64,000 nt of DNA, from contig MEWB01000001.1 of the NCBI GenBank assembly GCA_001773215.1, positions 614,099-678,098 on the forward strand, in the 5' to 3' direction. Position numbers and translations under genes: made by a program. Origin of the DNA: a candidate division WWE3 bacterium RIFOXYC1_FULL_40_10 (GTDB lineage Bacteria > Patescibacteriota > WWE3 > UBA101185 > UBA10185). Positions within the stretch are counted from its first letter, which is position 1; each line of letters begins with the position of its first letter. Positions 53,091 to 61,218 of the stretch are shown one piece after another. The notes below the pieces were generated by a model. It searched no databases. It had not been told where the DNA came from and worked only from the letters and a program-made list of their open reading frames with translations.

Positions 53091-53594
53091 TTATTTTGGT
53101 CGCGACATTAAGCCAACATTTTTTGAACTTGCAAAATTAAATTCAACTCTTTGATAAATTACACCATGATCGTCGTAAAATTTCGAGATCTGGTCTATCA
53201 AAGCTTCCCTGCCAAGCTTTCTTGATCGATCCCAAAAGTTACAGCAGGGGATTAAGATAGCAGGCTTAATAAGTGCCGCTTCGGCTACAGCTCTGGTGGC
53301 TTCGTCGGGATGTAAGCCAATTATTAAGTCGAAGGTTGAAGCAAGATCGGAATCAAATACTTCTTGCACAGAAGGAACACCTACTAAGGCAAATCCTCTT
53401 GGATCAACCACTTCAGCTTCGTAGTTGTACTTCTTTCGCAAAATCCTTGTTAGCATCCCCCTTCCTCCCGCCACATCGGCAATGTACCTAACTTTTCTCC
53501 CATAAGTTTGGGCAACAAAATCCGCTAAAACCTCAAACCTTTCGGGGGCGCCATGAAACATGTGACCTTTAGTTTTTCCCTTGAGTGTACTCAT
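53091..53594 (-). CDS. Small SAM-dependent methyltransferase-like protein
   Basis: IADVAGGRG, VVDPR, DLIIGLHPDEAT, IPCC. Confidence 0.75.
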   Translation of the reverse strand: MSTLKGKTKGHMFHGAPERFEVLADFVAQTYGRKVRYIADVAGGRGMLTRILRKKYNYEAEVVDPRGFALVGVPSVQEVFDSDLASTFDLIIGLHPDEATRAVAEAALIKPAILIPCCNFWDRSRKLGREALIDQISKFYDDHGVIYQRVEFNFASSKNVGLMSRPK

Positions 53595-54151
53595 ACCGTT
53601 TCCTCAGCTTTTTTGTTGTAAATAACAATATTTTGGCCCTTAAAATTGAGCTCTGCTTTTCCAATATCAAAGCCCTGTTGCTTGGCGTAATCAACAAGCG
53701 AATCCAGCCAGTTAATACCCTGTTGTGGAATAATCGGCTCTCCTACAACACAACATGGTAGAAGCACAAAATCCTTCCCATATTTTTTGCAGGCATTTAT
53801 GATTTTCATATTCGAACCATGTGCGTGCAATCCGATGAGCAAGTTATAATCTTGAGCCATTTCTTCTTTAAATTTATCCGTAACTCTTGTAACACTCCCT
53901 CTTTCTTTTTTAACAAGCGTTGTCCTCGTCTTCGTTAAGTCTTTAAAGGTTCGGGGTAATTCTTGGTTAAAGGGATCAATAACGACAGCATTCCAGCCGC
54001 TTTTGTTTAATAAATAGGCTAACAGCCCCTTCCCACCACCTACATCCGCGGCTTTACAGGGTTTATAGTTAGTTACCAACCAGTCGTGTAAGAGATGGAA
54101 TCTTTTGCGGTGACTAAGCCTTGGTTTTCTTCTATCTGTTTTTTGCTTCAC
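53591..54151 (-). CDS. Small SAM-dependent methyltransferase-like protein (paralog of the downstream gene)
   Basis: AADVGGGKG, VIDP, LLIGLHAH, LPCC, LNF...N; GTG start at 54151; ATGA overlap with the neighbour. Confidence 0.75.
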   Translation of the reverse strand: MKQKTDRRKPRLSHRKRFHLLHDWLVTNYKPCKAADVGGGKGLLAYLLNKSGWNAVVIDPFNQELPRTFKDLTKTRTTLVKKERGSVTRVTDKFKEEMAQDYNLLIGLHAHGSNMKIINACKKYGKDFVLLPCCVVGEPIIPQQGINWLDSLVDYAKQQGFDIGKAELNFKGQNIVIYNKKAEETV

Positions 54152-54198
54152 GAAGGCATTATAGCAACAAACCAAGCATGTAATTTTGCCAAATTGGA

Positions 54199-55011
54199 TT
54201 ACAAGCCCAATTGCTCAAGTTTAGCAGCAGTCTCGTCGTGAAGCCGTTTCTCGAGTATCTCCTGAGCATTTATTGTAGCCATCTCTTCTTTTCTACTCTC
54301 TTCCCACGCCTCTCTGGCGGCCAGCCTCCTTGGCTCCACAACTTTTTCACCTAATAATCTTAGGAAAACTGGTGCAAAATTCACAAAGACCTTTAATTCA
54401 TCATCCCCACTCATTTGCATGCCATCTACCCTAACTTTAGGTAAAGGTTGGCCAAAATATTCTGGATAATTGACCACTTTGTAAATGTTTTTAAAGGTGT
54501 GCTTGGGACTACTGAGATCTAGTGTGATCCTTACTCCATTATAAACCAGACCAAGCTCCTCAACATTGTCCTCCTCGAGTTTTGAAGTAAAATCAGACGA
54601 CCCATTATATCGCTCCTCAAACTTCTCAACGAACTGCTTCTCAGTGAGAAGGTACCCGGCCATGTTAGCTATCCTCTCCCCATTAAGAACTTGTTTATCA
54701 CTTGGTCGTAAAAACCCAAACTTCTTCCCTCTAAAATAATTCTCAACCAAAGCCATGGTATGTGCAACAGAGACATCCTCTATAAATTTGTCCGCCTTAT
54801 CACCAAACAAACTTTGTAGTTCTCCAATAAGTGCTTGGGGGAAAGCATAGCCACGTTCCTCGAGTGTATATGACTCCGGTGTCAAACCAGTCATTCTGTC
54901 ATGGATATCAGTGTATTGTTCCCCACCAATTTTGGCAGTGCTGGGACTGGTAACGTAAGATATATCAAAAGGGTTTGCTGTGAATTCTTTTTTCATACCT
55001 ATATTTTGCAC
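54199..55011 (-). CDS. Hypothetical protein
   Basis: 270-aa ORF with protein-like composition; no motif recognised. Confidence 0.7.
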   Translation of the reverse strand: MQNIGMKKEFTANPFDISYVTSPSTAKIGGEQYTDIHDRMTGLTPESYTLEERGYAFPQALIGELQSLFGDKADKFIEDVSVAHTMALVENYFRGKKFGFLRPSDKQVLNGERIANMAGYLLTEKQFVEKFEERYNGSSDFTSKLEEDNVEELGLVYNGVRITLDLSSPKHTFKNIYKVVNYPEYFGQPLPKVRVDGMQMSGDDELKVFVNFAPVFLRLLGEKVVEPRRLAAREAWEESRKEEMATINAQEILEKRLHDETAAKLEQLGL

Positions 55012-55035
55012 TCAACCCAAAGAAGTTGTCAACGC

Positions 55036-55491
55036 TCATCTATTCCATGCTATGCAATTTTTAGCAAACTGTTTCAACGAACCGCTTTTTATAATTATTG
55101 CTTCGGGCTCAAAAACAGCGGCATACATATTTACCAGCGATATTACATCCAATAAAGCCCTATAACTAGATAAACCTGACATATCTATGTATATCTTGGT
55201 AAACTTGTTTCCAAGCCTCATAGCCTCTTTGATGTTGAACGCATCAAGCGTTTCAAACCTTATTTCAGGGTATTTTTGCCTTGCAACTTTAATGCAATCC
55301 AAGCTTATATCCGTAGCAATAAGGTTTTTGCATTTTTCATGAATAAGTGTTGAAGTTGTTCCCCACTCACAGCCAATTTCTAGTATTGAATCTAAAGGCT
55401 TCACCCATTTTTCTATTGTTTGCCTAAACTCTTCCACACCTCTTGTGGCTATAAAAAGAGTTTTGAGCTTATACTGATTTTCATTTGCCAT
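55036..55491 (-). CDS. Class I SAM-dependent methyltransferase
   Basis: ILEIGCEWG, ATDIS, RFETLDA, IYIDMSG. Confidence 0.8.
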   Translation of the reverse strand: MANENQYKLKTLFIATRGVEEFRQTIEKWVKPLDSILEIGCEWGTTSTLIHEKCKNLIATDISLDCIKVARQKYPEIRFETLDAFNIKEAMRLGNKFTKIYIDMSGLSSYRALLDVISLVNMYAAVFEPEAIIIKSGSLKQFAKNCIAWNR

Positions 55492-58634: not shown

Positions 58635-58839
58635 TGGGGGATCGTCTAAGTGGGCGCTTGCGCTGCCATTAGACAACCAGCTAATGATATCGTTATAGTT
58701 TAATTGTTCTGATAACTGTATTTCTTTATTGGGGGATCGTCTAAGCGGGCGCTTGCGCTGCCATTAGACAACCAGCTAATGATATCGTTATAGTTTAATT
58801 GTTCTGATAACTGTATTTCTTTATTGGGGGATCGTCTAA
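58635..58839 (+). repeat. Two 95-bp tandem repeats, each starting with the first 15 nt of tRNA-Gln
   Basis: TGGGGGATCGTCTAA at 58635, 58730 and 58825; the two units differ at one position (AAGTGGG vs AAGCGGG). Confidence 0.95.
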
Positions 58840-58898
58840 TGGTAGGACACTGCACTCTGGATGCAGGAATTGGGGTTCGACTCCCTGTCCCCCAGCCA
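58825..58898 (+). tRNA. tRNA-Gln(CTG)
   Basis: TGGGGGA...CTGCA-CT-CTG-GA-TGCAG...GGTTCGACTCC...TCCCCCA-G-CCA. Confidence 0.96.
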
Positions 58899-58933: not shown

Positions 58934-59977
58934 TTAGCTCTTGTAAGTTCTAAGAAACCTCCCTATGTCTGAATCTTTTTTAGATTCCAGCTCGATAATA
59001 TATCGAAGGGATTTTCGTGACGACTCAAACCTCCAGTTCATTATTTTATCCGCCTGTTCGTCACCGTAGCGGTTAGCTAAGAAATCCGCAATCGACTTCC
59101 TCGATTCGGAATCTGCGGACAAAAAAGCTCTGTCTATGGTTTCTTGTGTTATGCCACCTTCAATTAAAGTATTCATTATTATCGAAACACCTTCTGTTTC
59201 ATTTTTATAACCAACCACTACACCCCTATTTTCAAATAAACTGTCGCCTCCTTGTATTCCATTGGCTACCTGTTGGGCGTACCACTCCGTAACGCCTTCC
59301 TTAAAAGGTTTGGGCAGGTCGGTTGAAACATCAAGGTCATGTAAAAACTCATGTATTAGAGTAGCCTTTATATTTCTAGCAATAAGTGCCTGCTCCTCAC
59401 TTGTAAGCGATCTAGGTAGCTTCCCACCTTCTTTTTCTATCAACTCCCTTGGTGTATCCCATAACTCCCTTACGACAATAACTTTTTTTTCTGATACATC
59501 CACTTGCATTTCAGTTTTTACAAAAGATCCTGGATATGAGGAAACTGTTGGTCTAGTAAATCCACCCTCGCCTTCTATATCCCTACCTGGATATTGGGTA
59601 GCTCTAAAGAAATCATAGTCTTCGTTGGAAAGTACAAAAACCTTGATTTTGGCTAACGAAAAATCATAGGAGTCCAAATCTGCAAGTTCAAGACCGGGAA
59701 ATAGCCTTTGTAGCTTGTCTTGTGGAATAAATCCGCCTAACATCTTTAATGTATCCCTGAACGATTCTAAGACCAGCTGGGCATGCTTATCTTTATCCAG
59801 AAAACCCGCATGTTTCTCCATCTGAGTAAGGTCTTCCTCTAACATACTGGCTGAGTCAACTTCAATAATTACTTCCCCTCGGTCTTCCGACTCAAAATAG
59901 AGCAAGTGATCGTTTATTGGCTTCGCCTCTAATCCAGTTTTTTCGAAAACTTCCTTTTCCACACCCTCGAACTTCAT
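58934..59977 (-). CDS. Hypothetical protein with zincin-like HExxH motif
   Basis: LIHEFLH followed by FKEGVTEW (gluzincin-type third ligand). Confidence 0.7.
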   Translation of the reverse strand: MKFEGVEKEVFEKTGLEAKPINDHLLYFESEDRGEVIIEVDSASMLEEDLTQMEKHAGFLDKDKHAQLVLESFRDTLKMLGGFIPQDKLQRLFPGLELADLDSYDFSLAKIKVFVLSNEDYDFFRATQYPGRDIEGEGGFTRPTVSSYPGSFVKTEMQVDVSEKKVIVVRELWDTPRELIEKEGGKLPRSLTSEEQALIARNIKATLIHEFLHDLDVSTDLPKPFKEGVTEWYAQQVANGIQGGDSLFENRGVVVGYKNETEGVSIIMNTLIEGGITQETIDRAFLSADSESRKSIADFLANRYGDEQADKIMNWRFESSRKSLRYIIELESKKDSDIGRFLRTYKS

Positions 59978-60100
59978 GAGTTGATTATATATGAAAAGTT
60001 TTAGTTGAAATAGTGAGTACTTTAAGCAAAATACTCAAACTCGTCTACCAGACATGCTTATACTTTGCATTAAAACCATATAGTATAATTCTAAACATGT

Positions 60101-60175
60101 GGTGGGGTGGTGCAAATAATAGCATTGCCGTTTCATAAGCGGCAGATAGAGGTGAAAACCCTTTCCCCACCACCA
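60101..60175 (+). tRNA. Atypical tRNA with CAT anticodon (Met/Ile2-like, non-canonical elbow)
   Basis: GGTGGGG/CCCCACC acceptor, A73, CCA; D arm GTGC-AAATAATA-GCAT; anticodon arm GCCGT-TTCATAA-GCGGC; T arm AGAGG-TGAAAAC-CCTTT; TATAAT at 60084-60089. Confidence 0.82.
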
Positions 60176-60183
60176 AATTACGC

Positions 60184-61218
60184 ATGAAAATCAACGATTA
60201 TATAAATAATTTAATAACAAATAAGAGTCCGTACTATCTAACTACTGAAAATGAAAAAACTATCCAATTCGAAGGTATCGAAAAATATATATATAAAGTA
60301 CTCAATAACCATAAATACAAATGTACTAAAACTACAGAAAACTATGACAATATTGTAAAAAATATAATTCGCTTTAGTGTCCAAAATAAACTGCCAATCC
60401 ATCTGGATTTATCGACAGGTGCAACTAAAAATCCGAATGCAATTTCTTCCCCGGGTATTGATTGGGCGGAGGTCTTCAATATTGCATTTATACGTGAGTA
60501 CTTAAAACCAATTGCTGTTGCATACAAGCATGGAGTCGTGCTGGATTACTTCTCTGTCGCCGTATTTGAAGATAAGGTAAATCACATTCCACAAGCCGAC
60601 ATTGAAGCTTATGACAAGCAATTTTCTGAATTGATAAATGTTTATCAAAATTATTTACCTAATAATTTAAAAATAAGATATAGCAGATTAAGTGATAGAG
60701 GTAGTAAGGAGAATATATATATGTCTATGGATAAAAAAATCTCCGAGCTAAGAAGAAACTGGCCTTCCTTGAGCAATGAAGCTAAAAGTGAAAAACTACG
60801 AAGAGCCGAAAGAAACATTTATTTAACCGGAAACGAGCCTGATAAAGATGCGTTGATTTTAACATCTGCCTTATCTCATGACGCTTTTGGTAGTGAGTGT
60901 TGGAGTGACATTGCCAAACCGATTTGGCATGAGGAAGACGATATATCCCTTGGACATAGGTATACTGATGGTTGGGCAATTCACATAAAATCCGCACCCG
61001 GATCAACAGTAAACTATTGGAGCGGGACCGGGGTATTAGTTCGAAAAGGCAATACCTTTGTGCCTACGGTATTAAGCCCTAAGCAATATGATGAAATTTC
61101 AGACAGAATTACTATATTCAAGGATACCTTTTTTAAATCAAATAAAGAACTTTCCGAGAAATTAGATCCAATATTAGTGGCTCCCACAAGTGGAATGTGT
61201 ATCAAGAATAAAAAATGA
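60184..61218 (+). CDS. Divergent PvcA/Dit1 (isocyanide-synthase)-like fold protein
   Basis: PIHL....G.TKNPN....IDWAEVF...YLKPIAVAYKHGV.L.YFS...I.AY...F and C-terminal NYWSGTGVL parallel the PvcA/Dit1 motif order; AT-rich. Confidence 0.55.
   Translation: MKINDYINNLITNKSPYYLTTENEKTIQFEGIEKYIYKVLNNHKYKCTKTTENYDNIVKNIIRFSVQNKLPIHLDLSTGATKNPNAISSPGIDWAEVFNIAFIREYLKPIAVAYKHGVVLDYFSVAVFEDKVNHIPQADIEAYDKQFSELINVYQNYLPNNLKIRYSRLSDRGSKENIYMSMDKKISELRRNWPSLSNEAKSEKLRRAERNIYLTGNEPDKDALILTSALSHDAFGSECWSDIAKPIWHEEDDISLGHRYTDGWAIHIKSAPGSTVNYWSGTGVLVRKGNTFVPTVLSPKQYDEISDRITIFKDTFFKSNKELSEKLDPILVAPTSGMCIKNKK

Follow-up and report, generated by a model that had tools for sequence, protein, structure and literature searches.

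A tRNA-like RNA paired with a PvcA-fold enzyme gene in Patescibacteria: a candidate aminoacyl-RNA-dependent cassette

Cyclodipeptide synthases (CDPSs), whose catalytic serine is located after the first strand, draw on the cell's normal tRNAs. Staphylococcus aureus has surplus, non-proteinogenic tRNA-Gly species with A49-U65 and A51-U63 in the T-stem and with G18G19 lost, which, in the accessible part of the report on them, are proposed to escape EF-Tu and to feed a non-ribosomal enzyme (PMC4052509). Characterised isonitrile synthases use free tyrosine or tryptophan together with ribulose-5-phosphate, according to the available portion of PMC11350588, and the fungal protein CrmA, as the excerpted text of PMC9381783 has it, consists of an isocyanide synthase domain fused to adenylation, thiolation and transferase domains, with valine, an aliphatic amino acid, as its substrate. 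The locus described here lies in the genome of the candidate division WWE3 bacterium RIFOXYC1_FULL_40_10, within a stretch of 64,000 nucleotides (the window; contig MEWB01000001.1, positions 614,099 to 678,098 of the forward strand), and consists of a tRNA-like RNA with a CAU anticodon followed by the gene for a 40-kDa enzyme of the PvcA fold (Table 1). From the sequences, we put at roughly 60% the reading that the RNA, once freed from its transcript, is charged by a host synthetase but stays outside translation, and that the enzyme consumes the resulting aminoacyl-RNA.

An earlier note on this DNA had reported a complete 75-nt CAU cloverleaf, a TATAAT upstream, an 8-bp gap and an AT-rich open reading frame (ORF) of 344 amino acids, and all of these are found where it placed them; the GC content of the ORF is 34.4%, against 40.4% for the genome. 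The acceptor stem of the RNA is paired at 7 of 7 positions, ARAGORN assigns it to tRNA-Met, it scores 49.4 bits with Rfam RF00005 (gathering score 29), and its folding z-score is -3.89, with 1 of 200 shuffled sequences equally good. The universal elbow is missing, as the note had also seen. The D-loop, AAATAATA, has no GG, and the T-arm combines the pairs A49-U65, G50.U64 and A51-U63 with the T-loop TGAAAAC. This is unusual in the genome, a single 897-kb contig with 48 tRNA genes, where the 47 others have GG in the D-loop (47/47), TTC in the T-loop (46/47) and an encoded CCA (46/47); the lone gene without T-loop TTC is probably a parsing offset in the one gene without CCA. Canonical tRNAs for fMet (C1:11822), elongator Met (C1:13411) and Ile(UAU) (C1:7075) are encoded separately, which agrees with the dedicated tRNA that the note had proposed, and MetRS and the formyltransferase are encoded as well. 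Because these tRNAs are present and the TilS family has no match in this genome (0 of 5 genomes searched), the element is surplus to decoding. It thus departs from a translational tRNA-Met or tRNA-Ile2, having no G18G19/T54-psi55-C56 elbow and no required place in the decoding set, and it resembles a non-proteinogenic tRNA in being a surplus gene with T-stem pairs weak for EF-Tu and with G18G19 lost. At the sequence level, it keeps its synthetase identity elements and CCA end.

The likeness to the staphylococcal tRNA-Gly species of the Fem system, which the note had pointed out, concerns the same kinds of change as far as the available text of PMC4052509 describes them: a surplus tRNA, A49-U65, A51-U63 and no G18G19. 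Unlike in that system, the RNA here is the cassette partner of an enzyme of unrelated fold; eight or more amino-acid identities are represented, and some elements have shed the anticodon or the greater part of the T-arm. Two other tRNA loci of this genome are also atypical. A second TrpRS gene outside the window (G000:C1:278567-279611, L103) has a second tRNA-Trp on its 5' side and a membrane protein gene on its 3' side, and this tRNA-Trp is the genome's only tRNA gene without an encoded CCA. At G000:C1:260268-260343, a tRNA with a six-base anticodon loop leaves ARAGORN undecided between Thr and Asp, and a normal tRNA-Asp is present elsewhere.

The PvcA/Dit1 motif order that the earlier note recognised in the ORF is real. 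Pfam PF05141 matches the query at E 0.002 and 18.1 bits, under its cut-off of 26.4, and the profile of the query family matches PIsnA (9dhm, E 6.8e-10) and PvcA (3e59, E 8.3e-5), in the N-terminal half only. The Rossmann/PvcA-like fold of the note is borne out by fold comparison, with PvcA as the nearest neighbour of the query protein, followed by the aminoacyl-tRNA-binding CDPSs and TyrRS. The enzyme belongs to an undescribed family with the PvcA fold, probably within the class Ic synthetase/CDPS superfamily. Residues G79, K82, E96, Y143 and W279 are invariant in 57 of 57 locus-derived members, and D93 is present in 49 of the 57; the N-terminal Lys, Asp-x-x-Glu and Tyr of isonitrile synthases are therefore present (K82, D93/E96 and Y143), aligned with the canonical profiles. 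The canonical C-terminal RLSIH, which the note had found lacking, and the PWH histidines are absent from the family, which has IHIKS and S-x-V-x-[FY]-W-x-G-x-G, a correspondence drawn by eye because the profiles align only the N-terminal half. Compared with PvcA, IsnA, PIsnA and DIT1 (PF05141; 3e59, 9dh4, 9dhm), the family is 16-17% identical, below the Pfam and NCBIfam cut-offs, has a W94 that is missing from canonical members, is paired with a tRNA-like RNA, and shows no TauD/PvcB partner among the neighbours scanned. The query has no NCBIfam match, and NF045653 is matched by 4 of 139 family members (best E 6e-5). Pfam CDPS families match 0 of the 139 at E 0.01, and unlike the CDPSs, the family carries G-x-[YT]-K, its Lys invariant, in the loop after the first strand and has no conserved Ser at positions 79-83. 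A different PvcA-like subfamily without a tRNA element also occurs in Patescibacteria (L095-L098; L-numbers denote loci), with a ROK sugar kinase-like gene, recognised by eye, downstream in 3 of 4 loci and a second divergent PvcA-like gene upstream in L097.

The pairing of gene and RNA recurs among homologs. From 91 matches we obtained 63 non-redundant genes, and dropping four with less than 90 nt upstream left 59; elements were called with our own cloverleaf parser at a score of at least 45 (49 elements), and three were added by hand (L030, L073 and L078). A tRNA-like element is present upstream of 52 of these 59 genes, whereas 53 control windows downstream of genes gave a maximum parser score of 41. 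Linkage of this kind had been set beforehand in the earlier note as one test of its proposal. In one of the dropped loci, L026, a Met-type element is represented by its 3' half. Seven genes have no element upstream (L004, L042, L053, L070, L090, L094 and the Rhizobium gene L088), and of four PF05141 genes of the same phylum that are closer to canonical members, none (0 of 4) has a tRNA call directly upstream. The distance from the element to the start codon is -2 to 28 nt in 47 of the 50 cases measured and 68-87 nt in the other three, and the AUG overlaps the 3' tail of the RNA in L010, L030 and L032. An alignment of 17 Met- and Ala-type elements has 98.3% of its cells paired, and 15 of 21 pairs have changed on both sides; 0 of 500 shuffles reached this level, and slid controls were 50-65% paired. 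A covariance model of the Met/Ala elements, run on 134 genomes, gave 85-90 bits solely for the four training elements, which adjoin the enzyme, and the next 16 matches inspected (58-65 bits) were canonical tRNAs. No orphan elements were found in the 134 genomes, a weak test, with training sequences as top matches and 36 candidates scored per genome.

The cassette has a patchy distribution (18 of 401 genomes). Homologous loci include records labelled Saccharibacteria and Roizmanbacteria, and enzyme homologs are present in actinobacteria too. The enzyme gene is broken in 4 of the 63 copies (L002, which is G003:C15, and L045, L054 and L085) with the RNA intact; L035 is merely truncated by a contig end. 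Tandem cassettes occur at L016:1162-3350, a Met type and then a Thr type, with a separate RNA for each. Met-type cassettes are also found in two records titled Gammaproteobacteria (L009 and L011, in genomes of 1.2 and 0.8 Mb), labels that may be wrong, and L009 has a FemAB-family gene divergently upstream.

The marks of translation are mostly lost from these RNAs. Among the 52 elements, GG in the D-loop is found in 6, TTC in the T-loop in 13 and both in 4, and G51-C63 is present in 3 of 48 elements compared with 26 of 47 host tRNAs. Anticodon loops of 4 or 5 nt are common, and in four elements (L005, L078, L082 and L083) the T-arm consists of 2 pairs and a tetraloop. These reduced T-arms recall T-armless mitochondrial tRNAs, and the loops of L082 and L083 contain CUA and CUC, respectively.

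Amino-acid identity is largely retained, as judged against host tRNAs and the portion of Table 1 of PMC9976931 available to us. All 14 elements with CAU have A73. Twelve anticodon-less elements, from at least seven families, have A73, G2-C71, G3.U70 and G4-C69, which in that table is the bacterial Ala identity set, for which the anticodon is not needed; G3.U70 occurs in 0 of the 40 other elements, and close homologs of CAU elements that lack the anticodon have G3.U70 in its place. The His class has G-1 and C73 in 7 of 7, five of which have GUG in the loop, and U73 is found in all 14 elements of the Cys (GCA, seven), Thr (NGU, three) and Gly (UCC, four) types, in agreement with the host Cys, Thr and Gly tRNAs. 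There is one Arg-type and one Val-type element; L080, which has a short loop and no G3.U70, stands outside the identity classes, as do L082 and L083. By these elements, at least eight identities are retained (Met, Ala, His, Cys, Gly, Thr, Arg and Val), the anticodon is dispensable and the amino-acid identity is swappable, two features that the earlier note had not anticipated. The CAU of the query presumably acts as a MetRS recognition element rather than as a decoding triplet.

The 3' end follows the CCA-adding capacity of the genome, taken as a PF01743 match over its cut-off and compared for the 39 elements whose genome could be assigned. Where the genome has no such match, 12 of 12 elements encode CCA; where it has one, 16 of 27 do, and all 11 elements without encoded CCA are in genomes with a match. 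At a stricter PF01743 threshold of 100 bits, CCA is lacking in 9 of 20 elements with a match versus 2 of 19 without one. Related genomes are not independent, so the CCA and identity counts are read as patterns and not as p-values. The CCA pattern indicates that the 3' end of the element is needed.

The identity of the RNA co-varies with the clades of the protein, a comparison that the earlier note had proposed for the anticodon. On a quick protein tree of 57 rows, from which three broken genes were excluded and in which L002 was read through with X, the RNA class changes 15 times, compared with 38.3 times for shuffled labels (0 of 200 as low). Within the Met/Ala clade, positions 81, 83, 132, 229 and 231 split 14 Met-linked from 10 Ala-linked proteins. 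From Met to Ala, V132 is replaced by M, A229 by I, T or C, and G, A or S231 by V or I, so that the smaller amino acid goes with the larger residue; H232S is found in each of the 7 His-linked proteins. The discriminating positions fall into three places: behind the first strand, in the helix that follows the second strand, and in helix 221-236. These elements form the amino-acid pocket of TyrRS and the CDPSs. A more careful tree nests the Ala types among the Met types and does not reject a single Met clade (p 0.355), and the Met/Ala change may therefore have arisen only once. A separate switch to CAU and A73 seems to have occurred in L078, whose sister is of the Thr type with U73.

An RNA that keeps its identity elements, discriminator and CCA and loses its elbow, T-arm and anticodon geometry is most simply explained by release, charging by the host synthetase and exclusion from translation, and a fixed RNA partner together with enzyme clades that follow the amino acid is most simply explained by an enzyme that consumes the aminoacyl-RNA. 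The RNA and ORF probably share one transcript from the -10 box. Hexamers of the -10 type precede 34 of 50 elements at a distance of 3-35 nt, where shuffles expect 12.6, and occur in 5 of 50 cases in an interval further upstream; at the query TATAAT (60084-60089), a sigma-70 scanner found no -35 box and for that reason did not list it. RNase P and 3' processing would release the RNA from this transcript and leave a nearly leaderless mRNA; the spacer at 60176-60183 is too short for a Shine-Dalgarno site that does not overlap the RNA. Charging of the released RNA would fall to the normal host synthetase (MetRS in this case), and the RNA is predicted to escape EF-Tu and the ribosome. Its aminoacyl end would then bind the enzyme pocket common to this fold, the CDPSs and TyrRS, and the amino acid would be handed to the adjacent enzyme for non-ribosomal chemistry. 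The synthetase and RNA would thereby stand in for the adenylation and thiolation domains that CrmA has fused to its isocyanide synthase domain. CrmA (PMC9381783) is a precedent for coupling such an enzyme to amino-acid activation and a carrier, and differs in having a protein rather than an RNA carrier, a canonical isocyanide synthase domain and a eukaryotic host. Given this model, our best guess for the chemistry, a tentative one, is a PvcA-type conversion of the alpha-amine of the RNA-bound amino acid to an isonitrile, followed by release or transfer, as suggested by the conserved PvcA core. A CDPS-like aminoacyl transfer to an acceptor, suggested by the relationship to CDPSs, is somewhat less likely, and some other reaction is rather unlikely.

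Other explanations of the cassette have been weighed against this model. ThrRS binds the leader of E. coli thrS and controls its translation, and the element could similarly be a cis-acting tRNA-mimic operator, a retained or cleaved leader whose binding by the cognate synthetase controls translation of an enzyme that uses free amino acid. The constant position 5' of the gene, the short spacing and the AUG overlaps fit an operator, for which identity elements and matching protein clades would be equally expected. A leader, however, needs no CCA, yet CCA is encoded wherever a CCA-enzyme match is lacking and is dropped solely where one is present; the discriminator base and G-1 are conserved within classes, and three elements stand well away from the start codon. 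We consider an operator unlikely. It is also rather improbable that the RNA is a charging-state sensor or RNA antitoxin that silences the protein when charged, with lost charging or nuclease attack (starvation, phage) freeing a toxic or signalling activity. The patchy distribution, the presence of one class across unrelated families, the broken copies, the free choice of amino acid and the tandem cassettes of L016 would suit such a system; against it, the query falls in no PADLOC family (2023 library; 1 of 139 members has an unrelated Cas8a match), no recurring defence island surrounds the loci, the phage records and viral contigs searched contain no matches, and a relative outside Patescibacteria sits in a biosynthetic cluster without an RNA.

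The earlier note had left open whether the enzyme uses, charges or modifies the adjacent tRNA. Use is favoured, and charging is unlikely, since at least eight host synthetases, drawn from class I and class II, have their identity sets represented among the RNAs. A minimal synthetase or tRNA-modifying enzyme that loads a non-standard substrate onto the adjacent RNA would fit the relationship of the fold to TyrRS and TrpRS and the co-variation of protein and RNA classes, but a gain of G3.U70 on loss of the anticodon would then be purposeless, no HIGH or KMSKS motif is found in the family consensus, and hhalign gives the family a 0.2% probability against the genome's TrpRS; we regard it as very unlikely. 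An AT-rich ORF near a tRNA-Gln(CUG) gene (58825-58898) and the loss of conserved tRNA positions could point to a decayed tRNA duplicate left by island integration and functionally unconnected to the gene. Compensatory pairing in four stems, conserved spacing, and identity elements and CCA kept across many families stand against this, as do varied flanking genes with no recurring integrase, and the covariation and identity pattern effectively refute it.

No description of this cassette was found in the literature searched. Private tRNAs as such have precedents; as far as we have searched, the combination of this enzyme family with interchangeable minimal tRNAs in a cassette is new. It is conceivable, at somewhat less than even odds, that the family is a new class of aminoacyl-RNA-dependent enzymes in which a ribosome-invisible minimal tRNA is a swappable amino-acid selector, the RNA-carrier counterpart of the adenylation-thiolation module of non-ribosomal peptide synthetases, in bacteria thought to lack secondary metabolism. 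A change of RNA identity (from CAU to G3.U70, G-1:C73 or U73) and of a few pocket residues would then redirect the enzyme to another amino acid, whose product could be, for instance, an RNA-bound isocyano-amino acid. If the model holds, tRNA-dependent chemistry would gain a further enzyme family, the PvcA fold would have a functional tie to the related CDPSs and TyrRS, and these RNAs would be the clearest natural case of tRNAs evolved for charging and not for decoding. The model would also suggest amino-acid-derived products in Patescibacteria, whose host interactions are poorly known, and the RNAs would be natural orthogonal aminoacyl carriers. The appearance of G3.U70 where the anticodon disappears repeats the classical identity experiments in nature. 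Genome annotation will miss such elements or mis-call them as ordinary tRNAs.

The flanking genes of homologous loci include no constant third gene. A TrmB-type regulator is found at 13 loci, mostly divergent (upstream in L040, L041, L045, L055, L072, L076, L080, L081, L084 and L085, and also at L074, L077 and L079), and these share an operator-like motif about 40-70 nt upstream of the RNA, with GACACT in 8 of 13 compared with 0 of 36 other loci and CCGTCA in 7 of 13 compared with 0 of 36; the query locus has neither. Major facilitator superfamily (MFS) or EamA transporters flank six loci. On a Rhizobium leguminosarum plasmid (L088:1565-6918), the homolog without an RNA is in an operon with genes for a diaminobutyrate transaminase, a methyltransferase, metK and an MFS transporter, and L094 is flanked on both sides by aminotransferases. 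From these two loci, the family looks biosynthetic where its context is readable, and the L088 cluster offers a culturable entry point to its chemistry.

Table 1. Features of the cassette, in window coordinates.
Feature	Position	Strand	Basis
-10-type hexamer TATAAT, putative cassette promoter	60084..60089	+	sequence; function predicted
tRNA-like RNA of the Met type, with CAU, A73 and encoded CCA; G18G19 and T-loop TTC absent	60101..60175	+	sequence, ARAGORN, Rfam, folding, covariation
CAU anticodon	60134..60136	+	sequence; A73 in all 14 CAU elements
Discriminator A73 and encoded CCA end	60172..60175	+	N73 tracks identity class
8-nt spacer, CCA to start codon	60176..60183	+	sequence
344-aa enzyme ORF, PvcA/isonitrile-synthase fold, ATG at 60184	60184..61218	+	ORF, family and fold comparison

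The tRNA-Gln(CUG) gene mentioned above is 1.2 kb upstream of the cassette, and a tRNA-Gln(CUG) also lies 3.6 kb upstream in L015 (L015:292-366); the two cassettes possibly occupy a shared insertion region. Next to the cassette on the minus strand (58934-59977) is a divergent ORF of 347 amino acids with a HEFLH (HEXXH) motif and a sub-threshold Peptidase_M85 match, which is not conserved beside the cassette in homologous loci. Further away on the same strand (53091-55491), three methyltransferase-like ORFs are clustered, and two adjacent ones have similar domain starts.
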